Positions 6,500-49,962 of a DNA stretch of 64,000 nucleotides are shown here, piece after piece. Made by a program: the position numbers and the translations under genes. Within the stretch, counting starts at the first letter, position 1; every line of letters begins with the position of its first letter. The notes below the pieces were generated by a model. The model saw only the letters and a list, made by a program, of their open reading frames with translations. It was not told the DNA's origin and did not search any database. Source of the stretch: Spirulina sp. (GTDB lineage Bacteria > Cyanobacteriota > Cyanobacteriia > Phormidesmidales > Phormidesmidaceae). Location of the stretch: assembly GCA_044070495.1 (NCBI GenBank), contig JBIPSI010000003.1, positions 64,001-128,000 of the forward strand. The letters run 5' to 3'.

Positions 6500-6609
6500 C
6501 GGAGCAGGCTAGAGCGGGACTGTTTCCAGAAATTTATAAACGGGATACGATTCTCGCATTGCCTGAGCGGGATGTGCCTAGAATCGGGTCGGAGAGTTTG
6601 GTGAACATC

Positions 6610-14331: not shown

Positions 14332-14366
14332 CCCTGCCACTGCCCTGATTGAACAAAGGACGTACC

Positions 14367-15759: not shown

Positions 15760-15780
15760 GGTTTACAAACAACGTCATTC

Positions 15781-18700
15781 TCATTCTCCGATGGCACCCA
15801 GGGCAAGGAAGGAAGCTCGTTGAGCCTCGGTTAGGCCATGTGCCCCAGTGATGTTGGTACCTTCGTAGGGACGAGGGATTTGCCATACAGATAAGCATTT
15901 GCTTGTGCTGACTTGCCATAGTCGGAAAGTGGCATCACCACTGCCCGAAGCCAGCCATTGTCCATCACGGCTAAACACAACTGAATAGACAGTAGCAACA
16001 TGACCAGTAAATATATGAATACATTCTCTTCGGGAGATATCCCACAATCGAATAGTTGAATCTCCACTTCCTGTAGCTAACCATTGTCCACTAGGGCTAA
16101 ACACAACTGAGTAGACAGTATCGGCATGACCTGTGAATACATGAACGCACTTACCCCTCTGGATATCCCACAGTCGAACGGTTGAATCTCCACTTCCTGT
16201 AGCCAGCCATCGTCTATCTGGGCTAAATGTAATTGTCCCAACTCCGCTGGTATGACCCATAAACACTTGAGCACACTGCCTTTTGGAAAAATCCCATAAA
16301 CGTACCGCTGAATCTCCACTGCCGGTGGCTAACCAGTGCCCACTTTGACTGAATGCAATAGAGTAAATGCCAGCAACCTGTTGTGCGGAAGTAAAAGCAC
16401 ATTTTCGCTGTTTGATATCCCACAGACGAAGGGTTGCATCACGGCTGCCAGAGACTAACCATTGCCCATCTGGGCTAAATGCCACAGAGTAAACCCAGTC
16501 AGTGTGATCATTGAAACTATGAAGACATTGCTGCTGCTGGATATCCCACAGTCGAACCGTCTTATCCCCACTGCTAGTAGCCAAGTATTTTCCATCTGGA
16601 CTAATAGCAACTGAAGTAACTGAATCAGTATGGCCGGTAAACGTAGCTCCCCATTGTTCTTTCCGTATATCCCATAACCGAATCTTGGAATCTCCACTAC
16701 TGACGGCTAACCATTGTGCATTGGGACTAAACGCAATGGAGCTTACCTCAGCAGTGTGGCCGCTAAAAGTAGATATGCATTGTTGTTCTTCAATATCCCA
16801 TAATCGAATAGTTGCATCATCACTGCCAGTAACTAGCCACGGTTTATTCGGGCTAAATACAACTGAGTTAATTCCAGCAGTATGTCCAGTGAAGTTATAA
16901 GCACATTGTCGTTGATTAATATCCCATATACGAAGAGTGGTATCACCGCTACACGAAGTTATCCATCGACCATCTGGACTAAAGGCAACTGAATAGATCC
17001 GATCAGTGTGACCAATAAAAGTATGGATACAAGTTTTGTGTTTCAAATCCCAAAGCCTAATAGTTGTATCACTACCACCAGTAGCCAACCATTGTCCATC
17101 ATGGCTAAATGCAACTGAGTAGATTCGATCAGCGTGTCCAACAAAGGTATGTACACATTTTTTCTGTTTTATATTCCACAACTTAATAGTGGAATCGTGG
17201 CTTCCTGAAACTAGCCATTGCCCATCAGGACTAAACGCAACTGAACTTATCCCAGATGTATGTCCCGTAAAAGTGTAGATGCATCTTCTTTCCTGAATAC
17301 TCCATATTTTAAGAGTTCTATCACCACTGCCTGAAGCTATCCATTTTCCATCTGGACTTATTTTTATTGAGCCTATCCAGCCGTTATGACCATTCAAAGT
17401 GTAGATGCATTGACGCTGATTGATATCCCATAATCTAATGGTCTTGTCATCACTGGCAGAGGCAATCCATTGTCCGTCTGGACTGAATATAATTGAGGAG
17501 ATCCAAACAGAATGACCAATAAAAACATCAATGCATGTTTGGTTGGTAATATTCCAAAGACGCAGTTTACCATCGCGACTTCCGGAAGCTAAATATTGCC
17601 CATCTGGACTAAAATCGACTGCATGGACAGGGCCAAAGGGATGCGTCAATTCTGGATTAACCCATTGAGTATTAGCTAAGTTAAACCCATGCAGTTGGTT
17701 ACCTTTGAGGTGGGCTTGTCTGAGGGTGAGATGGGAGAAATCGAAGGGCTGAAGCGCCGTTTGAGACTGGCACAGCAGATTTAACAGATTTCCGGCGGCA
17801 TAGCCTTCATCCCAGCCAGGATGCTGGCGGATGGTTTCCAGGGAATGGCTGACGGTTTGGGCTAGGTTGGCAAGACTGGCGGCAATGGGCTTGAGGATGA
17901 GGCGGACTTGAGTTTCGCGCACGTAGTCCTTGGCTGTGGCTTGAATGAGCGCGTGTGTATGGGAGAGATCAAAGGCTTGAGTCGTTAGTTCGCAACGAAC
18001 CTGTTCCACAAATCGATCCGTCGTGAACTCCATGATCACGTTTTGCAGGGTGAACTGTTTGCCCACAGTTTCGATCAAGCAGCGATCGCGCAACCCTGCA
18101 AAAGCTCCCCGCACCGCCTGCTTGGTTACGGGCGGGTGCAGGTCTGCCATCAACTCATTTAGGCCAACGGGTTCGCGGTGAATGGCCAGCCAAAACAAGA
18201 CCGATCGCTCCAGGGGAGCAAGACGGCTGAGATGCTGCTCTAGCAGGGTGCGGACATCCTCAACAGCCGTGACATGCTCATGCAAAAATTCATCCACATC
18301 GCCCAAAAACTCTCGCTGGATGGCGGTAGCCACCAGGTACAACGCCTGGGGATTGCCACTACAGCGCTGAATCAACTCCTGTCCCTGGCCTTCCGCCTCA
18401 TCTAGAACGATCCCTTTGGTCTGGAGGATTTGCCATCCGGTCTCCGCATCCAGGCGACCGACCGACCATAGGCGCACAGGTAGTTGCGCCCCCGCCAGTG
18501 GCGTTAACTCCCTGGGGCATTCTCGACTAGTCAGTAGCAAGCAGCTCTGGTGTTCAGCACAGCCAATACGCTGGATTAACTCGCCATAGTCTTCATAGCC
18601 CTCGCGGTAGCGGCCAGCGGCTTCGGGCTGCAAGATGGACTCTAAGTTGTCCAGCACCACCAGGCAGCGGTGCTCCCGCAGGTAGTGGAGCAGGCGAATG

Positions 18701-19323
18701 ATGCGCTCCCCCAGGCGGGTGGGCAGGTTAATTTCGGTCTCCTGTTGGTCTGAGAGAAACTGAATTAACCGCACCAGAATGTCATCCAGGGGCGGCGCTT
18801 CTCGCAGACTGCGCCAGATGATGTAGTCAAACTGATCGGTCAGTTGATTGGCGAGTTTGGCGGCCAGGGAGGTTTTGCCAATGCCGCCCATGCCTAGCAG
18901 CGTCACCAATCGGCAGCGGTCGGACACCACCCACTGGTGGAGGGTCTCCAATTCCTCCGTGCGGCCAAAAAATAGGGCCGTATCAGGCTTTTCGCCCCAG
19001 TCGATTTTGGCTGTTGATGAGGTTCGGCAGTATCGGGCTGCTGGGCGAGTGAGGGCAGGTTCAACATGCCCATAGTCGGCGGGCTCTAGCGTTAGGTCAA
19101 ACGCCTGAAAGAGTGACCGAACGGAGCTTTCATCGGTAGATAATGCCTGCTTGAGAATCTTCTTGATGGTTTTGATGCTGAGCTTGGTTCGCTCCTCAAG
19201 CTCGGCCTGGGTGAAACGAGCGCCATATTTTTCCTGATCTTGAGCCAGGGCGATTGCCGCTTCTAAACGAGCCTTGCCGCGATCCGTCAAAACAACTCCG
19301 CGTTGGCGTTGGCTCATGGGCAC
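15781..19323 (-). CDS. STAND NTPase: N-terminal HTH, NB-ARC domain and 14 WD40 repeats
   Basis: 'FTQAELEERTKLSIKTIKKI' HTH; GMGGIGKT Walker A; LVVLDNLE Walker B; GNPQAL; 14 countable GH...WD repeats. Confidence 0.93.
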   Translation of the reverse strand: MPMSQRQRGVVLTDRGKARLEAAIALAQDQEKYGARFTQAELEERTKLSIKTIKKILKQALSTDESSVRSLFQAFDLTLEPADYGHVEPALTRPAARYCRTSSTAKIDWGEKPDTALFFGRTEELETLHQWVVSDRCRLVTLLGMGGIGKTSLAAKLANQLTDQFDYIIWRSLREAPPLDDILVRLIQFLSDQQETEINLPTRLGERIIRLLHYLREHRCLVVLDNLESILQPEAAGRYREGYEDYGELIQRIGCAEHQSCLLLTSRECPRELTPLAGAQLPVRLWSVGRLDAETGWQILQTKGIVLDEAEGQGQELIQRCSGNPQALYLVATAIQREFLGDVDEFLHEHVTAVEDVRTLLEQHLSRLAPLERSVLFWLAIHREPVGLNELMADLHPPVTKQAVRGAFAGLRDRCLIETVGKQFTLQNVIMEFTTDRFVEQVRCELTTQAFDLSHTHALIQATAKDYVRETQVRLILKPIAASLANLAQTVSHSLETIRQHPGWDEGYAAGNLLNLLCQSQTALQPFDFSHLTLRQAHLKGNQLHGFNLANTQWVNPELTHPFGPVHAVDFSPDGQYLASGSRDGKLRLWNITNQTCIDVFIGHSVWISSIIFSPDGQWIASASDDKTIRLWDINQRQCIYTLNGHNGWIGSIKISPDGKWIASGSGDRTLKIWSIQERRCIYTFTGHTSGISSVAFSPDGQWLVSGSHDSTIKLWNIKQKKCVHTFVGHADRIYSVAFSHDGQWLATGGSDTTIRLWDLKHKTCIHTFIGHTDRIYSVAFSPDGRWITSCSGDTTLRIWDINQRQCAYNFTGHTAGINSVVFSPNKPWLVTGSDDATIRLWDIEEQQCISTFSGHTAEVSSIAFSPNAQWLAVSSGDSKIRLWDIRKEQWGATFTGHTDSVTSVAISPDGKYLATSSGDKTVRLWDIQQQQCLHSFNDHTDWVYSVAFSPDGQWLVSGSRDATLRLWDIKQRKCAFTSAQQVAGIYSIAFSQSGHWLATGSGDSAVRLWDFSKRQCAQVFMGHTSGVGTITFSPDRRWLATGSGDSTVRLWDIQRGKCVHVFTGHADTVYSVVFSPSGQWLATGSGDSTIRLWDISRRECIHIFTGHVATVYSVVFSRDGQWLASGSGDATFRLWQVSTSKCLSVWQIPRPYEGTNITGAHGLTEAQRASFLALGAIGE

Positions 19324-19351
19324 AGGTGGGTAGATGACAATTCAGCCCCTT

Positions 19352-19513
19352 CGGAAACTTAAGGGAAAGTTTTCCGCAACTGAGTTGATGATACGCGATC
19401 TTTCCCAGCCTTGCCTAATCGCTGAAAGGCTCATCAAGTCTAGTGTTTGGCAAACGGTATCGGGCACAGTCAAACTTTCGGCCAACCTTCCCCAAACCCT
19501 CCCAACTTTCCTT
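19352..19513. promoter_or_regulatory. AACTTTCC-like repeats in the divergent promoter region
   Basis: Four ~11-bp-spaced copies at 19471-19513 plus an inverted copy (GGGAAAGTT) inside CGGAAA...TTTCCG at ~19352-19376. Confidence 0.5.
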
Positions 19514-19599
19514 AGAAACCGCGAGCGATTTTGATTGACTGACCTCATCCCAAGTTCCGTTAATCGTCACTCCATCGTAAGTTGCGGAGAACCGTCACC

Positions 19600-19824
19600 A
19601 TGAGCTTTTCCCCTCTCTCTCCATCCGCTGATCTGACCGCTTTTCAGGGCCGTGGCGTGGTCGAGCGTCGCATTACCCCGACCAACCCAGGGCGAGTCTC
19701 CTTTCAGGCTTCCTACTGGCCCGCCCGCCTCGTGCAGTCCAGCATTCCAAACCTAAACCCTGGCGACCCGGTGGAGATTGTGGGCCGCGAAGGGCTTACC
19801 CTCCTGGTTAAGCCGTTGCCCTGA
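19600..19824 (+). CDS. NfeD-like OB-fold protein
   Basis: 'GRVSFQASYWPAR...LNPGDPVEIVGREGLTLLV'. Confidence 0.8.
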   Translation: MSFSPLSPSADLTAFQGRGVVERRITPTNPGRVSFQASYWPARLVQSSIPNLNPGDPVEIVGREGLTLLVKPLP

Positions 19825-19837
19825 GGGAGGCTAATTC

Positions 19838-20068
19838 ATGAAACAGCGCCGCTCTTGGCTCCTAGAATTGGCGGTTAATGCTCTAAAGTACTCATTCCTT
19901 AGTCTGGTGGGTTGCACCCTGGCTTACAACATCTCAGCGTATGTCCTGGAGTGGTGGCTAGCCGCTGATCTCATCGTCATTGTGTTGGAACATCTGCTAC
20001 TGCGGGGGCTGATCCTAGTTGGGTGTTTATGGGCGATCGCGGTCATTGTTGAATCCCTGAGTAACTGA
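19838..20068 (+). CDS. Small two-TM membrane protein
   Basis: 76 aa with two hydrophobic helices; GGAGG SD. Confidence 0.65.
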   Translation: MKQRRSWLLELAVNALKYSFLSLVGCTLAYNISAYVLEWWLAADLIVIVLEHLLLRGLILVGCLWAIAVIVESLSN

Positions 20069-20329
20069 AGATTGGGTAAAGTCAAAAGGTATTTCGGGAT
20101 TTGCCAGAGGATCATAATGGACAACTTATCCCCGTCTGTAGCTTAGTTACTTCCGTCAAGGCCAGTAGGTACCCATCTCCGTAGCCGCTGACCATCACAG
20201 GTACAGCACAAACGGAAAAACGTCAGCCGGAAGGGGAAGGACATCATCAGGCATGAGCTAGGACGCAGTCTAAAGGGACTCAGCGCCAAAGGATTTGAGA
20301 TGGGCATTAATGCAGGATATTTCTATCAC

Positions 20330-20857
20330 TTAGCTTCTATTTAGAAAAGATTCCAGCAATACTTTAGGTAGTTCTAGAAATCCACTCGAAGCCCAGTCAG
20401 GATATCCAAGTCGTCTGGCTTGAGATGTCATTGAAAATGGATCTATACCGAAACTATCATGACATACGGCCCAGTAGTGTATGTAACTACCTAAATTAGC
20501 TCCACCAATACCACTTTCGTTGGCAGGACTGAGGAGATTTAAGTACATAAACTCATCATCGTCTGGTGCATCATAGGCAATAAATGGATTACGGAGTGAA
20601 CAATAGATCCATTCTCTGTCTCGACTCGTGCCACTATAGTCACTGACGATTTCCAAATCAACTACAAAAAGCTTGTTGTTTTGACCATCAAACTGATTTT
20701 GATGAATCAGTCGTTTTTCTAACAAGTACGTTTGCCAACAAGAGCCTTGACGACAGTTTTCGTCAATCAACTGTCTTTGCTGAGCTACAGATGATGATGA
20801 AAAGCCCATCACCACAAAGAGTAGAGAAGTAAAAAATATTTGTCTTATCATGTTCAT
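20330..20857 (-). CDS. Secreted hypothetical protein
   Basis: Signal-peptide-like N-terminus ('IFFTSLLFVVMGFSSSSVA'); several cysteines. Confidence 0.7.
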   Translation of the reverse strand: MNMIRQIFFTSLLFVVMGFSSSSVAQQRQLIDENCRQGSCWQTYLLEKRLIHQNQFDGQNNKLFVVDLEIVSDYSGTSRDREWIYCSLRNPFIAYDAPDDDEFMYLNLLSPANESGIGGANLGSYIHYWAVCHDSFGIDPFSMTSQARRLGYPDWASSGFLELPKVLLESFLNRS

Positions 20858-20922
20858 CCTCCGTTCAGATAATAAATAAATTCAAACCGGAAATTCAATA
20901 TCCCTTAATGATTGAGAAAATG

Positions 20923-21774
20923 CTAAAAAGAGTTAAGACACAATTGAAGAAAGTCTCGCTCATTTTCAGTTATTTGATTTGACAAAAGACGATAGTCACT
21001 TAAGTTAATTGGGTAGTCCGAAGAGGAAACTTCAAAATCTTCACTTCCAGAAATATGGTGTCCCCAAACTGCTTGAGTAATAAGATTGCCTGACACAATC
21101 CCACTGAGACAGGGATTGTCTGCCATGTAAACGATTGTGAATCCCACAACCCTACTGCCACGCTTCTGGATTACGAGAACAGGATCTACTTCAGGTGTGA
21201 GATGTGGACTGGGTGGTAGTTCAAACTTATAGATGCCGTCTGGCATACGAGCTAAGTTAAAGGTTGAAGAAGATCTTGGCGGCGTGTAATCTTGACCAGC
21301 ATCAGTGATCGTGAAGCTATAGCGTCCTTGACTATTTCTTGTACGGCCAGCAACTACTGCTGAGTATTCACCACTTCGAGGCAGCATTAAAGTGATGTAA
21401 GAAGTACCTCCATTAGGATTTAACACCGAAGCAATGAATTGATTGTCTGGGCTAAAAACCATCAAGCCTCCGCCAGAGGCATTATTTTCTATGACTATGA
21501 AAATCTGTTGGCCTGCCATTCCATCGAAATAATATTCATCGAACAAAACATTATCATCTAGAGCACTATCTCCTTGCTCAAGGCTCCCGTTAATTTGCAT
21601 AATGATATTATTTTGAGCCATATAGAACTCAGGTGTATTGACTGGATCTAACGCCAAATGACTTAATGCTGGATTGATTGATCCTAAACTCAGCAATATT
21701 GTTGACATGGAAAGTGATAGCGCCCTAGCCCTAGTCAATATAATCATTGAAATAAATCTCCTAGCTAATCTCAT
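20923..21774 (-). CDS. Secreted protein with PPC (pre-peptidase C-terminal)-like domain
   Basis: Signal-like N-terminus; 'INGSLEQGD...FDEYYFDGMAGQQIFI...LPRSGEY...GRYSFTI'. Confidence 0.7.
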   Translation of the reverse strand: MRLARRFISMIILTRARALSLSMSTILLSLGSINPALSHLALDPVNTPEFYMAQNNIIMQINGSLEQGDSALDDNVLFDEYYFDGMAGQQIFIVIENNASGGGLMVFSPDNQFIASVLNPNGGTSYITLMLPRSGEYSAVVAGRTRNSQGRYSFTITDAGQDYTPPRSSSTFNLARMPDGIYKFELPPSPHLTPEVDPVLVIQKRGSRVVGFTIVYMADNPCLSGIVSGNLITQAVWGHHISGSEDFEVSSSDYPINLSDYRLLSNQITENERDFLQLCLNSF

Positions 21775-21840
21775 TATTTGAATTCTTGTAAACCTTCCAA
21801 AGATTTAGGGACAGGATTGCCCCCACTCGTCATAACCAAG

Positions 21841-22653
21841 TTAGCTGCCTTGCAAATCAGGCAAAGGAAGTAGCTTGCCATAGGCGACAAGACTCTGAAA
21901 TTGCTGTTGAAGCGCCTTAGAAATAACTTTATCTTTAATCAAAATCCCCGCTTCGATATTGCGATTATGAGCAGCTTCTGTAAAGTTGGCGGAACTGATA
22001 AAAGCAGTCGCCTCATCTATGATCACGCATTTTGCATGAAGGCAAGCCCGAAATCCAGACGAACTAGAGATAGAACGAGGATCATAGAAAACTTCTGGCA
22101 ATCGTTTGCCGGGCCATATCTTGTCGCGGAAGTGATTACTACAATCTTGGACTAACTGCTGAGGGCTATAAATATGATTAGGCCGCATCAGGTTGATAAA
22201 AAACTGTACGGTTAGTTTAGGATTATCATCCATACGATTCGCTAGCGTTTGAAATATGGCATCAGCCTTAGTATTTTGGTCTATGGCATAGGTTGAAACT
22301 AAAACACTGTGCTGAACTAATTCAAAGAGTTCCTGGACGACAACCCGTGTATCACGACTGGCGGTTCCAGGGACTTCTGGCCCAGTCCAAACTAACTCTG
22401 GTGGAGGGCGATCTTGTAACCGCTGGTTCCGTTCCTGGGCGATTGCTTCCAGTAAAGTTCCCACCTGCGCAAGAGTAAACCCTTGTGAGGTGAGATGATT
22501 TAGACTCTGAAGTATGTCAGGTAATAAAGCATCGGGGACATGCACGGTTAGATCAGCAGTTGTCAGCGGCAGGGTAAGGCGTTGACTCCGCAAGGCTTGA
22601 GCTAGGGTCTGAAGACTAGACAAGCTCAGTCGATGTAGGGGTGCAGTGTCCAT
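21841..22653 (-). CDS. drmC: DISARM phospholipase-D-family nuclease DrmC
   Basis: 'ELVWTGP' and 'LHAKCVIID...ISSANFT...NIEAG' (HxK-x4-D); last gene of the operon. Confidence 0.9.
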   Translation of the reverse strand: MDTAPLHRLSLSSLQTLAQALRSQRLTLPLTTADLTVHVPDALLPDILQSLNHLTSQGFTLAQVGTLLEAIAQERNQRLQDRPPPELVWTGPEVPGTASRDTRVVVQELFELVQHSVLVSTYAIDQNTKADAIFQTLANRMDDNPKLTVQFFINLMRPNHIYSPQQLVQDCSNHFRDKIWPGKRLPEVFYDPRSISSSSGFRACLHAKCVIIDEATAFISSANFTEAAHNRNIEAGILIKDKVISKALQQQFQSLVAYGKLLPLPDLQGS

Positions 22654-22658
22654 AATCT

Positions 22659-24590: not shown

Positions 24591-24615
24591 CGTTTGAAGG
24601 AATTGGATAGAAGGA

Positions 24616-28029: not shown

Positions 28030-28093
28030 GGGAAATTATCAGCCCTATAATTCTCAGATTTGATGTCAAGACAGGTATTTCATTAGGCTATTT

Positions 28094-32137: not shown

Positions 32138-32177
32138 GGGAGTTACGGAGAATCAGGATCAGGTGAAGGGGGTGGAC

Positions 32178-35100
32178 TTAGCTTGACAGTGGCCATAGAT
32201 AAACCAGACCAACAGGTTCAATGCGATCTGCTTTGACCTCATAGGCTTGGCGAATGCGTTGGGGCTCTTCCTCTAGCTCCTGGTCAATCTTGCTAAGACG
32301 ATCCTCTAAAAATTGAACGTCCATTTTCAACTGCCGTCGCTCCGCATCGGAAAATTCCAAGGTCAACTGCTGAACTGAATCTCGCTTATCCGGCAGTTCC
32401 TTCTCAATCCGTTTCTTCTGGGATTGCAAGAGATCCACCATGGCTTTAGCCTCCCGCTCGCCTCGCTGCGTCAATTCTCGAATCGCCCGTTCCCTTAAGG
32501 TTTCGGAACGCTTCTCCAAGTGGGGTAGCAAATCTGACACATCTTGAGCGGCATAGGCTTGAAATTGAATGGCCTCCTGGGGAGAAACCTGACACAGCTT
32601 AGGGTCGGCCAAGGATTGATTCAACTCTTCCAATACTTCATCCTTATCGCTGATCGTAAGGGGCCGAAGCTTGCCTCGTCCCCGGTGCTCTGGGGCGATC
32701 CACTCTGCCGCAACCGCAAGAATGTCATCATGGAGCCGTGCGGCCCGATTCCCGTAGAGGGATAAACGCCCCAACACAATGACCTTTGGAATTGCTGATC
32801 GGGTTCGACATACACAGGCTCGACTGAGTTCATGGTGAACAAAGCCCTGCGCTAGAAAGCGTCCTAACAGTCGTTGCACCAAGCGGTGTTCTAGGTGGAG
32901 GTGAACAAACTGCCCATCTAGACTATTAGGATCCTCGAAGATTACTGGACGGATAGATGATTCCCGCCGCCACTCTTGAAAATTTTGCCCCTTCCGTCGC
33001 GGTGCCCGTAGGCTGTCTAGGGTAGCCGCCCAGGATGGATCCCCCCCCAATTGCTGCTCTAGGTGGTCTAGATTCCAAGAACTAGAACCTGCCGTAGGCT
33101 GAAGGGGTGATATTCCCATCAAACCGAGAGAAACCGAGAGGGCATCTTGAAAATGATTGACCTCAAACCCTAGCCATTGCCTGGACTGTTCTAGAAGAAT
33201 TTGCAACTCAACTTGTTGGTTCTGAAGCTTAGATTCTTCTTCCCGAACCGCTTCTAATTCCTCTTTAATCACTCGTCCCTTATCTTTAGTCTCTTGATTA
33301 TCTTGATCGGCCTGTTTAATCAGAAGACTAATCTGCTCTGCATCCTGCTTCTGGATCCCTTGTTTCAGGATACGATCTACATTCTTCTCTAGGACTGGAG
33401 ATAGACTACCTAACTCCTTGGCAATTGTGTCTGTTTTCTCCACCAGGGTTTTCAAGACCTGATCCTCAGGCCGCTGGTGATAGACGAAATAATGACAACG
33501 CACCACGGGTTCTCGTTGGAGCTTGCGGTCAATCCGACCATTGCGCTGCTCCATCCGACTAGGATTCCAGGGCACATCGAAATGGAAGAGGTCAGCACAA
33601 TAGTTCTGGAGGTTGACCCCCTCTCGTGCCGCATCGGTGGCAATTAAAATCCTGAGAGGATGATCTTGAGGATTGGCATTAAACGCTGCTTTAATCAGTT
33701 GCCGTTGTTCATCTCCCATCCCGCCATGGAAGGTCGCAATGCGTTCCTCTGCCTGGTCAGTTTGGGCAATCATCTCCTTCAGTTGGATTTCTAGATAACG
33801 CTTCGTATCGGTGTATTCCGTAAAAATTAAGACTCGACGATTATTCCAGACTGCTCCAGGATGACCTAGATCAGGACAGAGATTTTCCTTGAGCCAATCA
33901 AATAATTTAAGGATTCGACCATCGGCCTGATGACGAGCTTTTTCAGCGATCACAGTCATTTCTTCCAACAGGTCTAATTCCCGTTGACTAATGTCTGTCT
34001 CTGAAGTGGCCTGGGTGGCCGCAGCCATCTGGTTATCTTCTTCCTGCTCTAACTCCTGCTCATCTACCTCAGCCCGATCATCATCGAACCCAACACTATT
34101 TTCCAGCAGATCATATTGAGCCAACAGGTGAGGAGCTTGATTCGTTGCCTGTCGTTCAATACTGGCTCGGTGTACCTTGAGCGTCCGGGCAAAAGCCTCA
34201 ATGGACGAGAGTAAGCGCTTTTGCAGCGAGATGACTACCAGCATGGCTGCCCGCTGATTAGACGCTGAGGTCTTTTTCAGTCGCTTCTGACGACAGCTTC
34301 GATATTCTTGCAATAAATCGGACAATACTAATTCAGGGGCATCCTTTGGTAGTCCATCAATGTTAACTGGCTCCACCTTTCGTTCAGGAAAGTCTGTAAT
34401 TTGAATGGCCCTCAGATCCTTCTTGAGCCGCCTTACCATTACATCCTCTAGCAGCTTCTTACTGCGCACTGGTATCCCCCGACAAAAGCGTTGGGGATCT
34501 AACATTTCAAGTAACGCAGCAAAACTATTAGAATGGCCATTGTGAGGTGTGGCCGATAGAAATAGCTTGTGCTCAAACAACGGACATAATTCCCGTACCG
34601 TCTTCGTGAGTTGAGAATCTATGGCATAACGAGAACTACTCGCGGGAGCAGCATTATGGGCCTCATCTAAAATAAATAACGTTTTGCCATCCGTAGCGCT
34701 TAACCAGTCCCTCAACGGGGCTGCATAGGTTTCATCCCGCAACAGCGCATGGGAGATGATAAAACGGTTATGGGTTTTCCATGGGTTAATGCCATATCCC
34801 CGCTGTCGTCGTTTCTGGGCCACATAGGCACGGTCAAACACCTGGAACAACAGTCCAAAACGGCTTTCCATTTCCTCCTGCCATTGCTGCACCACAGAAG
34901 GAGGACAGGAAATCACCATACGTTCGACCTTTTGACGCAGAATCAATTCTCGTAGAATCAAGCCCGCCTCGATTGTTTTACCGAGTCCTACGTCATCGGC
35001 AATAAATAAAGACACCCTCGGCATTTGCAATGCCTTTCGTAAGGGTTCTAACTGATAAGCCTTGACTTGAATCCCAGCCCGATATGGAGATTGGAATAAG

Positions 35101-35405
35101 TTGACTTTAGTAGACGTGACACAGTTCCACCGCAGGGTGTGGAGGTAGGCGGAGAAGCGATCAGGTTGGTCAAATCCTCTTTGTCCCACAACATCCCAAG
35201 AGGAATCCCCGAGAACACGAGCATCTAGTTCTTGGTTCCAAAAGACAGCAAGGGGTTGTCCCTGAGCATCATCCTCGATACAGGCGAGATGAACGGTGGC
35301 ATCTCCCTTCGATTCTTGAGGGCTTTCTACCTGCTGCACCAAATAGCGACGGGAACGAACGTGGACTACCTGACCAGGCATAGGCATTGACCGATCTTCC
35401 ACCAT
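32178..35405 (-). CDS. drmD: DISARM SNF2-family helicase DrmD
   Basis: ADDVGLGKT, DEAH, LSATPH, EGVNLQ and PWNPSRMEQRNGRIDR motifs. Confidence 0.92.
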   Translation of the reverse strand: MVEDRSMPMPGQVVHVRSRRYLVQQVESPQESKGDATVHLACIEDDAQGQPLAVFWNQELDARVLGDSSWDVVGQRGFDQPDRFSAYLHTLRWNCVTSTKVNLFQSPYRAGIQVKAYQLEPLRKALQMPRVSLFIADDVGLGKTIEAGLILRELILRQKVERMVISCPPSVVQQWQEEMESRFGLLFQVFDRAYVAQKRRQRGYGINPWKTHNRFIISHALLRDETYAAPLRDWLSATDGKTLFILDEAHNAAPASSSRYAIDSQLTKTVRELCPLFEHKLFLSATPHNGHSNSFAALLEMLDPQRFCRGIPVRSKKLLEDVMVRRLKKDLRAIQITDFPERKVEPVNIDGLPKDAPELVLSDLLQEYRSCRQKRLKKTSASNQRAAMLVVISLQKRLLSSIEAFARTLKVHRASIERQATNQAPHLLAQYDLLENSVGFDDDRAEVDEQELEQEEDNQMAAATQATSETDISQRELDLLEEMTVIAEKARHQADGRILKLFDWLKENLCPDLGHPGAVWNNRRVLIFTEYTDTKRYLEIQLKEMIAQTDQAEERIATFHGGMGDEQRQLIKAAFNANPQDHPLRILIATDAAREGVNLQNYCADLFHFDVPWNPSRMEQRNGRIDRKLQREPVVRCHYFVYHQRPEDQVLKTLVEKTDTIAKELGSLSPVLEKNVDRILKQGIQKQDAEQISLLIKQADQDNQETKDKGRVIKEELEAVREEESKLQNQQVELQILLEQSRQWLGFEVNHFQDALSVSLGLMGISPLQPTAGSSSWNLDHLEQQLGGDPSWAATLDSLRAPRRKGQNFQEWRRESSIRPVIFEDPNSLDGQFVHLHLEHRLVQRLLGRFLAQGFVHHELSRACVCRTRSAIPKVIVLGRLSLYGNRAARLHDDILAVAAEWIAPEHRGRGKLRPLTISDKDEVLEELNQSLADPKLCQVSPQEAIQFQAYAAQDVSDLLPHLEKRSETLRERAIRELTQRGEREAKAMVDLLQSQKKRIEKELPDKRDSVQQLTLEFSDAERRQLKMDVQFLEDRLSKIDQELEEEPQRIRQAYEVKADRIEPVGLVYLWPLSS

Positions 35406-35833
35406 TACGCTTCCCTCCTTAACTCATACACCCGCTGCCACTCCGCCGCCGTCACCTTGAAGTTAGTAGCATTGGGCTGGCGCAGCACCGTCAATGACTT
35501 CAGCACTGGATCTTGCTTCAGGTCACTTCGCAGCAGGGGCTGCTCCAGCAGCTTGTCCGTGAACCGTAGGGTGGCAAAGGGCTTTGTCCCCAGGCGTGAC
35601 TTATCCAGCCAGTAGCCGATATCAGGCGGCTCCGGCATCGGCTTGGGGGTGTCGATGATTTCTGCCATGGCATAGATCCCGGCCTCTGGCCCTGACATCC
35701 ATATCAGCACTCCATCACCAGGCTGCATGTCCTTGGCATAGCGCGTCACCAGCCAGGGCATTTGAGTGAAGTCTCGAATGCCGTCTAGGATGCGGTAATA
35801 CTTGGGATTTCCTTGAAAGAGCCAGTAGGCCAT
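35405..35833 (-). CDS. EVE-domain (PUA-like) protein
   Basis: 'MAYWLFQGNP...MQPGDGVLIWMSG...GIYAMAEII...QPNATNFKVTAAEW'; stop overlaps the drmD start (TAATG). Confidence 0.85.
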   Translation of the reverse strand: MAYWLFQGNPKYYRILDGIRDFTQMPWLVTRYAKDMQPGDGVLIWMSGPEAGIYAMAEIIDTPKPMPEPPDIGYWLDKSRLGTKPFATLRFTDKLLEQPLLRSDLKQDPVLKSLTVLRQPNATNFKVTAAEWQRVYELRREA

Positions 35834-36102
35834 TAGAGCATCATCCCCAGAACATCCCCACCGCAAAACAAGGCATTAGGAATGCCTGACTACTTTGGGT
35901 TTACCGAAACAACGACCAGGGAGAACGACCAACCCACATAGCCTGGGAATGCCTCAAACTCAGCAGCATCCCCAGCTAGAGATATTTACTTCACTCAGAG
36001 TACCCATCCGTATGACGAAATCACACATTACAAAACTAAATATTCTGACCTTGGGAAAAACCACTTGGCGGGGTTGCTGGAGTTCCACCACCGAGGACAG
36101 AC

Positions 36103-36284
36103 CTACCCCACGACGGTATCCTCCTCCAAGTCTTTGAACGCCTGTTCGAGGGCCATCCTACCCACTGCCGCCTTCTTGCGTTTGGCCTTAGCTGCTGCCT
36201 GGGTAAGCTGCTGGTGCAAGGACTCTGGCATATCCACGGTAAAGCGGATGATGCGCTCTGGGGATGTCGGGGTGGGGTGGCCAT
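36103..36284 (-). pseudogene. Frameshifted ribbon-helix-helix (CopG-like) gene
   Basis: One frame reads ERIIRFTVDMPESLHQQLTQAAAKAKRKKAAVGRMALEQAFKDLEE; the nearest upstream ATG (36284) is one base out of frame across C runs. Confidence 0.55.
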
Positions 36285-36359
36285 GACTTTTTCAGTCGAT
36301 TGAAGTTATTGTTTGATGGGATATTCTTTCAGGCCGATTAAATGGGATTAATTAGATAC

Positions 36360-37058
36360 TTAATCATTGTTATATATTGGTTCTAGGAGGCTGCCATCTT
36401 TTTCAATCTTCGTTTCGGCTTCTTTTTCTTCCTCGTCTTCCTCGTCTTCCTCGTCTAGATCAACTTCCCTCCATACGCCAATGAGATACCCTACTAAGTT
36501 CACTTGGCTCGACAACAGCTCTAGTGTAGGACTATTGTGATTCCAAGACTTGAGAATTACTTTGTCTCCGCTTCTATAAAAACCCGCAAATAGCAATCCC
36601 TCTGTAGTACGAGCAACGACTGCTGTACCATCCTGAACTGAGTCTCGATTTCCTATAGGACGAATTAAGACAACGTCACCCCCGGTAATCATAATGTCCT
36701 TAAATGAACACTCTTTCTCAACCTTAAGGGCAAAATCATCACTCCTGATAGGGATACCGGAAAAGTTCAAGCGTTCTACGGTATCCGTAAAAGCCTCCTT
36801 AACAAAGCCAGCCGCAATTGACCCTAATATAGGAAGCCCTCGACAATCTTCCCGGCAACTTATAGTTCGACCATGGCCTTCGGACCACTCTATATAGCCC
36901 TTGTTTTTTAGATACGTTAAACGAGCAGCCACAGACGAAACGGACTTTAAGCCAAGAGCTTGCATCATTTGGCGTAAAGAGGGGGCATGCTGATGCTTTG
37001 CAATGTATTCCACTATCCAGTCATAAAGTTCCTGTTGGGCGGAAGTGAGGGATTCCAT
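36360..37058 (-). CDS. lexA: LexA-family repressor paralogue with degenerate peptidase domain
   Basis: 'LTSAQQELYDWI...APSLRQMMQALGLKS' wHTH and IAAG cleavage-site motif; 'LLFAGFY' where 'TLKRFY' is expected. Confidence 0.85.
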   Translation of the reverse strand: MESLTSAQQELYDWIVEYIAKHQHAPSLRQMMQALGLKSVSSVAARLTYLKNKGYIEWSEGHGRTISCREDCRGLPILGSIAAGFVKEAFTDTVERLNFSGIPIRSDDFALKVEKECSFKDIMITGGDVVLIRPIGNRDSVQDGTAVVARTTEGLLFAGFYRSGDKVILKSWNHNSPTLELLSSQVNLVGYLIGVWREVDLDEEDEEDEEEKEAETKIEKDGSLLEPIYNND

Positions 37059-37374
37059 ACATAGGGAAGCTAATAGGGTTTCATTGGGGCTTTAAGGATC
37101 TTCTGGGGTTGTGACTGAGCCTGTATGGGTAAATACATTTTGCTACCACTCAAGGGGCTGAAACCCTTGCCGTGCTTGATACAAGTCAAGCTTATCGCTA
37201 GATGACCAGAAGATCCGCCTTTGATTCCTACCGACTCCTCCGATCTAATCCTTCCAGCAAGGTATAGATATGTGAAGCCATGAGCGTAGGCGTGGCAATC
37301 AGCGCGAGATCGCCACGCGATCCTTCAGATAGACAGAGCCAAAGAGTCAGCAGAAATACACAAGCCGTGTAGGC

Positions 37375-37405
37375 TTGACGTTTGGTAATATAGAACATAT
37401 GTTCG
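37375..37405 (+). promoter_or_regulatory. Sigma70-like promoter overlapped by a LexA box
   Basis: TTGACG (37375-37380), 17 nt, TATGTT (37398-37403); AGAACATATGTTCG at 37392-37405. Confidence 0.65.
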
Positions 37406-37409
37406 ACGC

Positions 37410-37498
37410 GTTAAACGACGTTGTGGGACATCCTCTGCAAACCCAAAAAGCAGAAGGTTCATAGGCGGAGCAGTGTTGGAGCACTGCTCCGCCTTTTT
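37410..37498 (+). ncRNA. Candidate ~90-nt small RNA
   Basis: Lies between a consensus promoter and a strong terminator; internal hairpin CCTCTGC/GCAGAAGG; no convincing ORF on this strand. Confidence 0.45.
37463..37498 (+). terminator. Intrinsic terminator
   Basis: 13-bp perfect stem AGGCGGAGCAGTG/CACTGCTCCGCCT followed by TTTT. Confidence 0.8.
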
Positions 37499-37531
37499 AG
37501 TTGTCCTAGGGAGAGAATTAACCTCCTTTAT

Positions 37532-37545
37532 AGTACATACGTTCG
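37532..37545. promoter_or_regulatory. LexA box (cyanobacterial type)
   Basis: AGTACATACGTTCG fits AGTAC-N4-GTWC; overlaps a - strand TGGACA-N18-TACTAT promoter candidate. Confidence 0.65.
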
Positions 37546-37851
37546 ATAATGTTTGTCCATAGGTGATCCTGAATTCTATGGCTATAGGCAAGTCCCTAGA
37601 GGTTTTGAGGCACTCTGGAACTCCCTGAAGGTCTGGATGTAGGTCAAGGACTGAATTTGCTTATATCCACCCAATTGCCTCTACCTTCTCGCCAACCGAC
37701 ACAACCTTGTTCTGCATCGTGTGATTCCTCACATTCGTCAAAGGAAGGGTTTCCATACTCATACGAAAGCCAGATTGGGTGCTCATAGCGTCACTGTTAC
37801 GACGGCCTTTACGACGGGCATTCTGAGGGAATCAACGTAACCTTTGACACC

Positions 37852-39708
37852 ATGGCTACCCTCATCCCCGCCTACAGCGCTGTCTCTGGCCGCATGACCA
37901 ACGGCGAAAAGCGGCTGGCTGAACGGCTGGAAGAGAAGCTAGAGGATGACTACCTGCTTTGGTACGACGTTCCCGTAGGGAAAAAACGGCTGCATCCCGA
38001 CTTCATCATCCTGCACCCCCTGCGCGGGCTGATTGTCTTGGAGGTGAAGGACTGGAGCCTAGACAACATCAAACAGTTCAACCCCGACAGCTTCACGGTG
38101 GTCATGGGCGACGGGGAAAGACCCTGCAAAAATCCCCTCGAACAGGCCCGTGACTACGCCCTCGCCATTGCCAACCAGCTACAGCGGGACAAACAACTCA
38201 CCCAGGCCGCTGGCCCCCACCGTGGCAAACTCGCCTTTCCCTACAGCTACGGGGTGGTCTTCACCAACATCAAGCGCAAGGATTTGGACAAAGCCTACTT
38301 CTTCGAGCCCATGCTAGAAGAAATCCTGCCCTCCACCCTGGTCATTTGCCAGGATGAGATGCTGCCCAGCACCGACCCGCTGGCCTTCCAAGAGCAGCTA
38401 TGGAACCTGGCCACCTACCAATTTGGTGAAACCCTCACCCCAGCCCAGATTGACCGCATCCGCTGGCACATCTTTCCTGAGATTCGCATCAACGATAGCC
38501 TTTCTGGGCCTGCCACCAGCGATGAAGACATCACCATTCCCGATATCCTGCGCGTGATGGATCTCCAGCAGGAGCAACTAGCCCGTAGCCTGGGCGATGG
38601 CCACCGGGTTATCCATGGCGTTGCGGGCTCCGGCAAAACCATGATCCTGGCCTACCGCTGCATCCACCTGGCCGAAACCATCGACAAACCGATCCTCGTG
38701 CTGTGCTACAACGTGGCCCTGGCCGCCATGCTGCGCCAAAAACTTCATGCGGAAGGAGTGGGCCACCGGGTCACCATTCGCAACATCCATAAATGGTGCA
38801 GCGATCTACTGAAGCTGTATCAAATCCCAAGGCCCAGTTCCAACCAATTTAAGGGCGATGCCTACTACGACGAAATCATCCGTCGTGTCCTTAATGCCGT
38901 CACATCAGGCCGGATTCCCGCTGGCCAGTTTGGGGCGGTGATGATCGACGAGGGGCATGACTTCAAATCAGAGTGGTATCAACTGGTGGTGCAGATGGTC
39001 GATCCTGACACCGATTCCCTGCTGGTGCTCTACGACGATGCCCAGAGCATCTACGAGAAACAACAACGGCAAAGCTTCAGCTTCAAGAGCGTGGGGGTCA
39101 AAGCCCAGGGCCGTACCAAGATTTTGCACATCAACTACCGCAACACCCAGGAGATTCTGACCATTGCCTACGAGTTTGCCAAGGAGCTGCTGACCCCCAC
39201 CGAAGGCAAGGATGACGATACCCCCGTCCTGGTGCAGCCGGAAACCGCAGGTCGCCACGGGCCACCGCCACGGTTGATTAAGCTGCCCAGCTTCCGCCAT
39301 GAGGTTGATTACCTAACCCAGCAGGTGCAAGCCTTCCACAATCAAGGAACCCCCTGGAACGATATCGGTATCATCTACCGCACGAAGTTCATGGCCGAAG
39401 AAGTGTCCAAGCACTTCCAGCGAGAAGGTATCCCGGTGGAATGGATCAACCGGGACAAAGCCAGCCGCGACTACAGCACCACCCAGGACAGCATCAAACT
39501 GGTGACGATGCACTCCAGCAAAGGGCTAGAGTTCCCCATCGTCTGCATCCCCGGCCTGGGCTTCATGCCCAACCGCTACGGTGAACCCGACGATGAAGCC
39601 CGGTTGCTCTATGTGGCCATGACCAGGGCCATGGAGCAGTTGGTGATGACCTGCGATAGACAATCCACCTTTGTAGATCGGTTGGAGGGGATGTTGGAGA
39701 AGGCTTAG
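37852..39708 (+). CDS. NERD nuclease fused to SF1 (UvrD-like) helicase
   Basis: N-terminal 'PDFIILHP...LEVKDW...NPLEQA'; GVAGSGKT, IDEGHD, NYRN, TMHSSKGLEF and LYVAMTRA motifs. Confidence 0.9.
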   Translation: MATLIPAYSAVSGRMTNGEKRLAERLEEKLEDDYLLWYDVPVGKKRLHPDFIILHPLRGLIVLEVKDWSLDNIKQFNPDSFTVVMGDGERPCKNPLEQARDYALAIANQLQRDKQLTQAAGPHRGKLAFPYSYGVVFTNIKRKDLDKAYFFEPMLEEILPSTLVICQDEMLPSTDPLAFQEQLWNLATYQFGETLTPAQIDRIRWHIFPEIRINDSLSGPATSDEDITIPDILRVMDLQQEQLARSLGDGHRVIHGVAGSGKTMILAYRCIHLAETIDKPILVLCYNVALAAMLRQKLHAEGVGHRVTIRNIHKWCSDLLKLYQIPRPSSNQFKGDAYYDEIIRRVLNAVTSGRIPAGQFGAVMIDEGHDFKSEWYQLVVQMVDPDTDSLLVLYDDAQSIYEKQQRQSFSFKSVGVKAQGRTKILHINYRNTQEILTIAYEFAKELLTPTEGKDDDTPVLVQPETAGRHGPPPRLIKLPSFRHEVDYLTQQVQAFHNQGTPWNDIGIIYRTKFMAEEVSKHFQREGIPVEWINRDKASRDYSTTQDSIKLVTMHSSKGLEFPIVCIPGLGFMPNRYGEPDDEARLLYVAMTRAMEQLVMTCDRQSTFVDRLEGMLEKA

Positions 39709-39885
39709 CACTTATAGCTTTTGCGCTTAGGAGTGGCGTTTGTATGATTGCCCTTAGCCTTATCTACAAGAGCCTGCATTGCGCCCTTGTCTGTCTTAAA
39801 TTTGGCAAGTGGTTCATCATACTGGTTGATCACTGACAACCAAGTTTCTCTAAGCTAGGATTGCGGTATTTGAGCTATCGGCAGC

Positions 39886-41031
39886 ATGATGGAGATTCCC
39901 CCAGTCATTCGCCCTGAACGAACTCTATCAACGGCTGAGCGAATAGAGCTGTATAGGACACTCAACGGGTTGCCATTGTCTCAGCTACTAGAGCTAGAGT
40001 TTGCTCTGGATGTGCCTCAGGGGATTATGCCGCCGCCACTGGAGCGACAAGGCCTCCGAACTAGAGTTTTGCTTGATTGGGTTGGAGGCTCGACAGGAAT
40101 TGGATGGGATAAATTTCTTGACGTATTGAGAGATGTGACTGGTATCTCGCTAACCTGCCGATCTCAACGACTTAAAGTAGTCATTGAGGGAGATATCGCA
40201 GAAGCCGATTCAACACTATTACTCAAAATGTTGGCTGAGTTTCAAACCCAAGCACAGGCCCCTTCCCTAAAAATTTCCAGCATTAGGGAAGGTAGTATAG
40301 AGCTGATTTTGCAAGGTACCCCAGAGGAAATAGATCGGCTGAGAGAGTTGATAGATTCAGGTCAGCTTACCGAGTTCGTAGGGCAGCGCATTGGAGATGT
40401 AGAAAAAATCATTGATCTCAGCCATGCCAACCTCAGCAGTGCCAACCTCATCCGTGCCGACCTCATCCATGCCGACCTCAGCGGTGCCGACCTCAGCGGT
40501 GCCAACCTCAGCGGTGCCGACCTCAGCGGTGCCAACCTCAGCGGTGCCAACCTCAGCGGTGCCAACCTCAGCGGTGCCAACCTCAGCGGTGCCGACCTCA
40601 GCCGTGCCGACCTCATCCATGCCGACCTCGGTGGTGCCGACCTCGGTGGTGCCGACCTCAGGCAGGCCATCCTCAGGCATGTCGCCCTCAGCGGTGCTGA
40701 CCTCAGCCGTGCCATCCTCAGCGACACTGACCTCAGCCGTGCCGATCTCATGCAGGCCAACCTCAGCCATGCCATCCTCAGCCATGCCAACCTCAGCGAT
40801 GCCGACCTCAGCGATGCCGACCTCAGCCATGCCATCCTTAGCCATGCCCTCCTCAACGACACTGACCTCAGCCATGCCATCCTTTTCCGTACCGACCTCA
40901 GCCGTGCCATCCTCCGCAGTACAATATTTGGCAATAACCAAGGGTTAGATCAGGCAGACAAAATCGATTTGATAGAACGGGGGGCCATTTTTCGAGACAC
41001 CCCTGGCTCAGATGCCCCGGTCTTGGTCTAA
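39886..41031 (+). CDS. Pentapeptide-repeat protein with N-terminal effector-associated-like helical domain
   Basis: A(D/N)LSG-type repeats in the C-terminal half; N-terminal 'RIELYRTLNGLP...LEFALDVPQG...LLDWVGG' module. Confidence 0.88.
   Translation: MMEIPPVIRPERTLSTAERIELYRTLNGLPLSQLLELEFALDVPQGIMPPPLERQGLRTRVLLDWVGGSTGIGWDKFLDVLRDVTGISLTCRSQRLKVVIEGDIAEADSTLLLKMLAEFQTQAQAPSLKISSIREGSIELILQGTPEEIDRLRELIDSGQLTEFVGQRIGDVEKIIDLSHANLSSANLIRADLIHADLSGADLSGANLSGADLSGANLSGANLSGANLSGANLSGADLSRADLIHADLGGADLGGADLRQAILRHVALSGADLSRAILSDTDLSRADLMQANLSHAILSHANLSDADLSDADLSHAILSHALLNDTDLSHAILFRTDLSRAILRSTIFGNNQGLDQADKIDLIERGAIFRDTPGSDAPVLV
40415..40915 (+). repeat. 15-bp coding tandem repeat (pentapeptide)
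   Basis: GCC(A/G)ACCTCAGCGGT-type units repeated more than 30 times. Confidence 0.9.
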
Positions 41032-41149
41032 CTTCCAGATGTCTCAAACTTGCTATGGCCGTTTATTCTACAGAAAATGGGGTTGCAACTAGATCTATCC
41101 AGTTATCCCAGGCATTAGGCAGGAATGACGGAAAGAGAGAGCAAAATAA

Positions 41150-41250
41150 AGGGCACCTCAATTAATTGCCTTATTGCGAATCCAAAGAGACTGAAACCAC
41201 TAGAATCTAGTACCTATTCTCAATAAGGTTTGTATTTTTCGAGGTGCCCT
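41150..41250. mobile_element. ~100-bp MITE-like palindromic element
   Basis: Terminal inverted repeats AGGGCACCTC/GAGGTGCCCT plus inner TTATTGCGAAT/ATTCTCAATAA. Confidence 0.6.
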
Positions 41251-41473
41251 AGAGAATAATCAGGTGCTCCTAAAGGCCTTACGGCAGTAGATCGCAGGTT
41301 TTGGAGGATTTTTCTCTAACCTGTAGATTAATGCGCTACCAAGACAACTTAGCTGGATCTTCACCACTGCTCCGAATGAGGTCTAGAATGCTTGCCAATA
41401 AACGGCTTCAGCCACACGGGCGCTAACTTTGAACCAGCCCCTATTCTGAGGCCCAGTCTATTCACGGTGGCCC

Positions 41474-47464: not shown

Positions 47465-47488
47465 CTAAGATAGGGGCACGTTTGGAGG

Positions 47489-49956: not shown

Positions 49957-49962
49957 GGGGCT

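Follow-up and report, generated by a model that had tools for sequence, protein, structure and literature searches.

Prophage cargo usually comprises a few genes, located at the ends of the phage genome or beside lysis and regulatory genes. Large systems such as DISARM (defence island system that is associated with restriction–modification) are, to our knowledge, thought too bulky for phage carriage, and it is our impression that few defence systems have been assayed in cyanobacteria. Gene 15 of phage HK97, the first "moron", is described as lying between the genes for the tail chaperone and the tape measure (PMC3594210), and hotspots of defence genes in prophages are described as established for P2 and P4 (Rousset et al., 10.1101/2021.01.21.427644). 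The locus considered here lies in a 64,000-nucleotide stretch of the genome of Spirulina sp., referred to below as the window (G000:C3:64001-128000), within the 238 kb contig C3 of a 5.3 Mb draft genome of 74 contigs and 56.7% GC. In the window, an island of 25,714 bp (15760-41473) is placed exactly between the stop codon of the frameshifted (GT) product of a tail assembly chaperone gene and the start codon of the tape measure gene of a contractile-tailed prophage, and about 16 genes, mostly antisense to the late operon, are predicted in it, including the five genes of a DISARM operon.

The reading favoured here, with a probability of roughly 0.6, is that the island is an oversized composite moron—that is, one lineage event at a classical moron site, and not a demonstrated recurrent hotspot. 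The account draws on a single genome and on its sequence. A preliminary description of this DNA had given the same place and gene content for the insert, and both were borne out.

The insert and its edges

The forward strand of the window encodes a morphogenesis module of a contractile-tail phage, as identified with Pfam and PHROGs (Table 1). The reading frame of the chaperone at 14981-15601 matched no Pfam or PHROG family; it is 30% identical to the gene at the same position in a relative (L005), and homologues of the T frame were found in L004 and L005, and at 10 loci in all by a wider scan. A slippery heptamer, GGGAAAG, lies at 15562-15568, in a register that fits a −1 slip into the frame with its stop codon at 15757-15759, and is a motif that we take to be the slippery site of lambda G/GT. 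The tape measure protein matches about 25 tape measure PHROGs, its N-terminus can be aligned from residue 3 with that of a relative's protein, and only 8 codons lie open in frame above its ATG. Since both proteins can be aligned with those of relatives, the slippery site is kept, and the frame is closed above the ATG, the two genes flanking the insert look intact, as had been supposed before. Furthermore, no structural gene of the phage is broken, all of them being open and full-length.

The island differs in composition from the genes on both of its sides. Its GC content is 0.503, versus 0.591 and 0.593 in the flanks, and its tetranucleotide frequencies correlate with those of the two phage halves with r of only 0.51-0.53. 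A site between genes that are adjacent in relatives and a composition unlike that of the flanks are two of the features by which a moron is recognized, and both are found here; for a third, a promoter and terminator of its own with expression from the repressed prophage, consensus scans gave sites at no more than chance frequency. The left edge is tight: the stops of the chaperone and of the convergent STAND (signal transduction ATPase with numerous domains) gene are 21 bp apart. Neither a tRNA gene nor an Rfam match was found in the window. Words shared by the two edges were only 8-9 bp long, with 3 distinct repeats emerging from 5 overlapping 8-mer matches, where about 4.4 such matches would be expected by chance (own arithmetic). 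The earlier statement that the island has no integrase, transposase or target duplication therefore holds, given that Pfam detected none of these enzymes in the island and that the edge words occur at chance number; an OrfB_IS605 match inside DrmA was weak and below cut-off. An integrative element with its own recombinase and target duplication was considered as well, and was rejected: Pfam recognized no recombinase family on the contig and the edge repeats are at chance level.

At the right edge, two palindromic dispersed repeats, A and B, sit in a 442 bp AT-richer spacer before the tape measure gene. Further copies, 6 of A and 5 of B, occur in the genome at 72-86% identity, on contigs C1, C2, C4, C8, C13, C25, C30, C44, C48, and C51. 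These repeats of about 100 bp, which resemble miniature inverted-repeat transposable elements, are also present in a congener (G005), where they lie at synteny breakpoints; around the element, too, synteny with G005 breaks at dispersed repeats. It is conceivable that the island is an artefact of assembly, produced by a false join of two unrelated contigs on the left, the right or both sides, for example through the repeats at 41150-41341. The draft state of the genome, in 74 contigs, and the 5-6 other copies of each repeat at the right edge speak for such an error. However, the left edge carries no repeat found anywhere else in the genome, and the repeats at the right edge would be poor substrates for a false join because of their short length and imperfect identity. 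The chaperone and tape measure genes are also single-copy, so that a false join on the right would leave the island beside the chaperone, and the tape measure gene without a second chaperone. The halves of the phage also share a strand, are collinear and complement each other in content. An artefact is thus considered highly improbable.

The possibility, raised in the preliminary description, that the two phage halves come from different elements was addressed by composition, copy number and collinearity. The halves correlate in tetranucleotide frequencies with r of 0.97 to each other and of about 0.9 to the host chromosome, and the best matches to both come from one set of five genomic relatives, with the gene order preserved. 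Because of this correlation and the matching GC content, the single-copy state of the chaperone, sheath and tape measure genes, and the collinear matches in the same relatives, the evidence points to one phage, and not two, on either side of the island.

Related loci and the question of a hotspot

The preliminary description had called the site an unusually large cargo hotspot. Relatives of the phage were sought with the sheath protein. Among 400 genomes of the class, five relatives were recovered (35-38% identity by alignment), and among 172 other genomes of the family, 5 matches (36-39%, none in the genus); with a sheath profile, a further 80 loci each came from IMG/VR and from metagenomes. 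The 165 loci thus obtained, 151 of them distinct by sheath DNA, include 64 distinct loci whose sequence continues for 8 kb or more past the sheath. In all 64, the distance from the end of the sheath gene to the start of the gpD gene is 1.8-7.3 kb, with a median of 4.86 kb, compared with 32,084 bp in the window, or 6.4 kb if the island is removed. At 1378 amino acids (aa), the tape measure protein is longer than those encoded by the five complete tape measure reading frames of relatives (714-1077 aa), which predicts, from sequence length, an unusually long tail; the island-free interval of 6.4 kb fits this long protein.

The joint itself could be mapped in the 3 of the 10 loci with a T-frame match that hold a complete tape measure reading frame. 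In these 3 of 3 loci, the distance from the stop of the chaperone T frame to the tape measure start is −1, +1, and +3 bp. Other joints of the tail operon do carry small inserts: reverse-strand DUF2026 and 273-aa genes in 2.4 kb between tube and chaperone (L130:11947-14438), an HNH endonuclease gene between sheath and tube (L006:3498-4403), and a weakly matched Rad52-like gene in about 2.8 kb between X and gpD (L008:7538-10220). None of these is at the chaperone/tape measure joint, and none is near 25.7 kb in size.

The joint could, alternatively, be a recurrent and roomy cargo hotspot of active temperate phages that ferry defence systems between cyanobacteria. In favour of this explanation, HK97 carries the archetypal moron at this very joint, the small reverse-strand inserts of L130, L006, and L008 show that the tail operon of relatives takes up genes elsewhere, the phage genes are all open with perfect attachment (att) repeats, and species have exchanged the DISARM module, as described below. 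Against it stand the lack of any large sheath-to-gpD insert in the 64 distinct related loci, the abutting chaperone and tape measure genes in each mappable relative, and the location of the congener's DISARM copy outside any phage. In addition, no close relative was found with the sheath in the 172 genomes of the family, or with the tape measure or baseplate J proteins in IMG/VR, where the tape measure N-terminus retrieved 4 loci at 30-38% identity and baseplate J none. In 60 other related genomes the chaperone protein had no match, and a single-protein search with the sheath brought up just two Treponema fragments of no relevance in genome contigs and nothing in viral contigs. A recurrent hotspot is therefore regarded as unlikely.

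A hotspot in the sense of P2 and P4, with varied cargo at the same site in related phages, was likewise tried against the data and rejected, given the absence of large inserts from all 64 loci, whose sheaths are at most 47% identical. The preliminary description had itself reasoned that the hotspot would fall if relatives never varied at this site; in the present sample, composed of distant relatives, they do not vary, and the term is not retained here. Its premise that the two genes are adjacent in lambda-like phages is not universal either, as HK97 gene 15 is described as lying between them (PMC3594210).

The cargo modules and their origins

The island comprises modules with GC contents of 0.39-0.57 and with tetranucleotide correlations between modules of 0.17-0.79. 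The genes of these modules, together with those of the tail operon on both sides, are compiled in Table 1.

Table 1. Predicted features of the window, with positions, strand and supporting matches
Feature	Position	Strand	Evidence
Mu F-like head protein	4739-5695	+	Pfam/PHROG
Major head protein	8156-9292	+	Pfam/PHROG
Neck protein	10565-10993	+	Pfam/PHROG
Tail sheath	12820-14331	+	PF04984, E 2e-13; phrog_23, E 4e-79; single copy in genome
Tail tube	14349-14891	+	PF04985, E 1e-20
Tail assembly chaperone (G 14981-15601, GT extension to 15759)	14981-15759	+	Position, heptamer, identity to L005; single copy
STAND NTPase: short N-terminal region, NB-ARC, about 14 WD40 repeats	15781-19323	-	PF00931, E 5e-18; WD40, E 3e-181
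Two small divergent reading frames (66 aa; 80 aa, NfeD-like)	19334-19824	+	PF01957, E 6e-10
Two low-GC reading frames (175 aa and 283 aa)	20330-21774	-	GC 0.39, 0.41; one with PPC, E 0.006, below cut-off
Class 1 DISARM operon	21841-35405	-	PADLOC and Pfam
drmC	21841-22653	-	PADLOC, E 2e-100; PLDc_2
drmB	22659-24668	-	PADLOC, E 1e-86; Pfam MZB in operon
drmA	24616-28029	-	PADLOC, E 3e-304; Pfam Helicase_C in operon
drmMI	28094-32137	-	PADLOC, E 0; Eco57I/MmeI methyltransferase and target-recognition domain
drmD	32178-35405	-	PADLOC, E 0; SNF2
EVE-domain gene	35405-35866	-	PF01878, E 1.5e-20; stop overlaps drmD start
Second LexA: LexA DNA-binding domain and S24 peptidase	36360-37058	-	PF01726, E 7e-23; PF00717, E 3e-9
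NERD nuclease and UvrD-type helicase fusion	37852-39708	+	PADLOC C3a187 'NERD+UvrD', E 6e-217; PF08378, PF13361
TRADD-N and pentapeptide repeats	39886-41031	+	PF20694, E 5e-8; PF00805, E 3e-60
Palindromic dispersed repeat A (right edge)	41150-41250		Terminal inverted repeats
Palindromic dispersed repeat B (right edge)	41249-41341		Terminal inverted repeats
Tape measure, 1378 aa	41474-45610	+	PF10145, E 7.5e-36; phrog_1533, E 5e-69; single copy
gpU-, X-, gpD-, V-, W-, J-, I-like tail/baseplate genes (fibre-like genes follow)	45612-51012	+	Pfam, PHROGs

The largest module is the DISARM operon of 13.6 kb, in which the genes are separated by gaps of 5-64 bp or share short overlaps. Class 1 DISARM has the composition drmD-drmMI-drmA-drmB-drmC. 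The core of drmA, drmB, and drmC is present, and a drmD of the SNF2 type and a drmMI encoding an N6-adenine methylase lie in the same operon; judged by its predicted genes, the operon is complete and of class 1. The congener G005 matches the window at 90% nucleotide identity over 21841-28780 and at 94% over 29856-36284, and this likeness breaks off sharply, on one side with the drmC stop and on the other about 420 bp upstream of the EVE gene. For the host genes that flank the element, identity between the source genome and G005 is 80-81%. Since the module is at 90-94% and the host genes at 80-81%, the DISARM and EVE module, on the evidence of nucleotide identity, has passed between species of the genus since the two diverged. 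In G005, the neighbours of the operon are an FGE-sulfatase-type gene, a phosphatase gene, a macro-domain gene and transposase fragments, with no phage genes among them, and neither the chaperone nor the sheath was found in that genome.

Between the two matching segments lies the target-recognition stretch of DrmMI (28780-29855, residues about 760-1120), which is 66% identical in amino acids to the G005 copy, compared with 97% for the rest of the protein, suggesting a swap of DrmMI specificity. The drmMI gene of G005 is split over two contig ends (L169/L170), one of which carries a DDE_3 transposase fragment. The EVE gene stands beside DrmD in G005 as well, with 91% amino acid identity, and EVE homologues of 77-86% identity occur in G023 (L177) and G027 (L179), with no match to DrmD within the stretches of 16-20 kb around them.

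The other modules have relatives of their own. The STAND gene and the two small divergent reading frames recur together in G476 (L178), at 67%, 44%, and 65% amino acid identity. As an observation in its own right, the gene with NB-ARC and WD40 domains and the divergent small NfeD-like gene, of the OB-fold, are conserved side by side in two or more genomes of the genus, and the pair may constitute a two-gene STAND system, as read from this conservation. The PF00931 match of the STAND protein lies on its N-terminal half, and the gene's only PADLOC match is HEAT-ARM_XIII, obtained via the WD40 repeats. The NERD-UvrD fusion has homologues of 66-69% nucleotide identity, standing alone, in about a dozen genomes of the family.

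The second LexA has 112 identical residues in 202 aligned columns with the host LexA (contig C55); in that alignment its Ala-Gly site is retained, as are the positions of Ser and Lys. A perfect hairpin with a 14-bp stem followed by a T run was observed at 37463-37494, in the spacer between the divergent LexA-like and NERD-UvrD genes, where it falls within a doubtful reading frame of 88 aa (37325-37591).

The two low-GC reading frames at 20330-21774 are absent from the G005 copy of the module and gave no PADLOC match. Their products have hydrophobic, signal-like N-termini, as read by eye, and their neighbours in a protein atlas, which are to be taken as leads only, are widespread cyanobacterial PPC or hypothetical clusters. 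The preliminary suggestion that the unannotated genes of the island are candidates for new defence factors survives here in weak form only, both products being signal-like and in widespread cyanobacterial families, and one of them carrying a weakly matched PPC domain.

Because the modules differ in GC content and tetranucleotide frequencies, and because each has its own relatives elsewhere, a piecewise construction of the island from separate captures is supported by composition and homology alike, and on this point the preliminary description of successive captures is upheld.

The carrier prophage and its fate

The cyanobacterial identity of the host, assumed from the start, is confirmed by 9 Photo_RC matches in the genome, this family having matched only in Synechococcus among 14 control genomes. 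Matches to five congeners stop at a tRNA-Arg(TCT) gene (C3:39552-39624), the last 47 bases of which are repeated exactly, as a direct repeat, at C3:132214-132260, which is 92.6 kb downstream; in window numbering, the two sites would be at −24448 and 68214, both outside the window. Genes on both outer sides of the element match congener genomes at about 72-87%. Given this exact recurrence of the tRNA-Arg 3′ end, the carrier is, by its predicted boundaries, a prophage-like element of 92.7 kb integrated at tRNA-Arg, with the 47-bp repeats as att sites. The island makes up 28% of the element, to which it has added 38% in length.

To the left of the head genes, the element encodes a recombination-directionality-factor-like protein, a methylase-bearing polyvalent protein, RadC, ParB, a Dam-like/GNAT protein and two terminase subunits, the small one and, by a weak match, a probable large one. 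Near attR lies a ParM-like partition gene, with a GGDEF/EAL gene just inside attR. Both ParB and a ParM-like protein would be in keeping with a phage-plasmid, as proposed earlier; this status of an extrachromosomal replicon was rejected in view of the tRNA-Arg integration, the 47-bp direct repeats and the congener-like flanks. The element is rather, on its gene content and boundaries, an integrated prophage with plasmid-like partition genes. Tyrosine, serine, and rve recombinases (PF00589, PF00665, PF07508, PF00239) were not detected by Pfam on the whole of contig C3, and no integrase was recognizable on the contig by Pfam or PHROGs. A reading frame of 374 aa beside attL (L176:15754-16878 = C3:39754-40878) had no sequence match in Pfam, PHROGs or PDB; it shows motifs that we take to be tyrosine-recombinase boxes, and may encode a very divergent integrase. 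The BcepMu TerL, portal, and TerS proteins gave no tblastn match in the genome.

Further reverse-strand genes and a duplication were observed in the same prophage. In a pair at 744-2840, between the probable large terminase and the portal, one gene encodes a DUF5131 protein for which PADLOC gave the candidates PDC-M41B and PDC-M30B (E 8e-36), and the product of the other, of 388 aa, belongs to no family; from this content, the pair looks like a second cargo insert. Three small reading frames of no family (128, 132, and 105 aa) lie on the reverse strand at 5718-6851, between the Mu F-like and scaffold/protease-like genes; the last of them overlaps a forward-strand frame (6559-7362), and some are possibly not real. 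After the baseplate genes, tandem paralogues of about 750 aa (51941-54190 and 54200-56461), both matching phrog_17470 (E 3e-114 and 7e-136), probably encode alternative or duplicated fibre or receptor-binding proteins.

Such features bear on the explanation that the prophage was already dead or domesticated when the island accreted, its exact site between two intact genes being due to chance and not to selection. The lack of a recognizable integrase on the contig is consistent with decay, as are the other reverse-strand inserts between terminase and portal and between the Mu F-like and scaffold genes, and the large size of the element with its non-phage cargo, such as the GGDEF/EAL gene. However, the structural genes are unbroken, the phage retains its G/GT slippery site and att repeats that match exactly along 47 bp, and the 374-aa frame by attL bears its presumed recombinase motifs. 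Furthermore, a hit in a joint of a few bases that spares both reading frames is what would be expected under purifying selection on the phage. Prior death of the prophage is accordingly judged doubtful.

Under the favoured reading of a composite moron, horizontally acquired defence modules would have been stacked in the few-base joint between the G/GT stop and the tape measure start. Because there is no recombinase, no target duplication and no shared edge, they would have been gained by several recombination events rather than as a site-specific element. Since the genes are mostly antisense to the late operon, they would be transcribed on their own, as morons, from the island's own promoters during lysogeny, and would protect the lysogen. 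DrmMI would mark the DNA of the cell, and unmarked incoming DNA would be attacked by DISARM; the EVE domain, a reader of modified bases, may add a sensing of modification; the STAND NTPase (by pattern recognition), the NERD-UvrD helicase-nuclease and the TRADD-N protein are candidate sensors or effectors; and the extra LexA could tie expression of the island to DNA damage.

For the phage, the insert would break the tight coupling of chaperone and tape measure genes found in relatives, and 25.7 kb of opposing transcription would uncouple the tape measure and baseplate genes from the upstream late transcript. Because of this uncoupling and of the 38% greater length of the element, the phage is probably impaired or grounded. 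The alternative, a still-active temperate phage that tolerates the 38% larger genome while carrying a complete DISARM system and three further candidate immune modules, would have its tape measure and baseplate genes re-driven from a promoter borne by the island. If it were true, the chaperone/tape measure joint could hold tens of kilobases, and such phages would have moved DISARM between species. This active, DISARM-ferrying phage is the less likely reading, and one to which we assign a low probability.

Several points weigh against the account of a single composite moron in an impaired phage. All relatives that reach the joint are distant, with 32-47% sheath identity, and the sole close one, the metagenomic contig L089 (73% in the sheath), spans 3.3 kb and stops at the window equivalent of 15607, 150 bp short of the joint; a hotspot limited to close kin could thus still exist. 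The open, full-length structural genes and perfect att repeats fit an active phage equally well, and that the element is too big to package is something we infer. In 35800-41700, 9 promoter-like sites were counted by consensus scan, with 5.1 ± 2.3 expected, a number not clearly in excess of chance, and one such site, a consensus match only, lies upstream of the tape measure gene at 41360-41389. The junctions are known from the draft assembly, with dispersed repeats at the right edge, and the STAND, NERD-UvrD, and TRADD-N genes are candidate defence genes by virtue of their families.

Comparison with known systems

The nearest cultured tail module is that of BcepMu (NC_005882.1), with a sheath 36% identical to that of the window. 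The order of sheath, tube, G/GT frameshift chaperone, tape measure, gpU, X, and gpD is shared with phages of the BcepMu/phiE255 type. In BcepMu, the annotated G/T frameshift pair overlaps the tape measure gene by 28 bp, whereas 25.7 kb separate the two here. Moreover, BcepMu is 36.7 kb long and transposes with an rve transposase; the present element, unlike it, is 92.7 kb long, has att repeats at a tRNA gene, encodes ParB and a ParM-like protein, and lacks an rve match on its contig.

Compared with class 1 DISARM, all five genes are predicted here, with two differences: an EVE gene coupled upstream of drmD, and a location within a tail operon. The EVE domain was absent as a term among the top literature matches on DISARM and DrmD. 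With respect to the antiviral STAND proteins of the Avs type, the NB-ARC and WD40 domains are present, and the N-terminal 110 aa gave no family match.

In P2, the hotspot sites lie elsewhere in the phage genome, and their cargo amounts, according to the preliminary description, to a few kb. The present locus resembles the P2 and P4 hotspots in having defence cargo at a fixed intergenic site of a prophage with P2-type tail genes. It differs in that those hotspots hold varied cargo across many related phages, whereas 0 of 64 related loci hold any large cargo here.

The closest likeness is with HK97 gene 15, with which the island shares the intergenic site, a temperate phage as carrier, a composition unlike the flanks and an anti-phage cargo. 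The moron work on that gene is reportedly that of Cumby and colleagues in 2012, and its insert is said to be small. HK97 gene 15 is one small gene in an E. coli siphovirus; here, a cyanobacterial prophage with a contractile tail holds 25.7 kb, some fifty times what is usual for a moron at this site. In a limited check of the literature, HK97 gene 15 was the one precedent, and no multi-system island of such size at this joint was encountered.

A complete DISARM operon and further immune candidates occupy the joint of the first moron, with both neighbours preserved to the base. If the phage is viable, the locus would set a new upper size for cargo in a structural operon and offer a route for the spread of DISARM in cyanobacteria; if it is not, a single gain of cargo would have grounded a prophage while its genes are still intact. 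In either case, the island provides a defined set of genes for tests: DISARM with EVE, the NB-ARC/WD40 gene with its NfeD-like partner, NERD-UvrD, TRADD-N/pentapeptide, and the second LexA. Overall, the use of the chaperone/tape measure site for cargo is already known from HK97, and it is the scale, that of a multi-system island, that forms the new aspect here.

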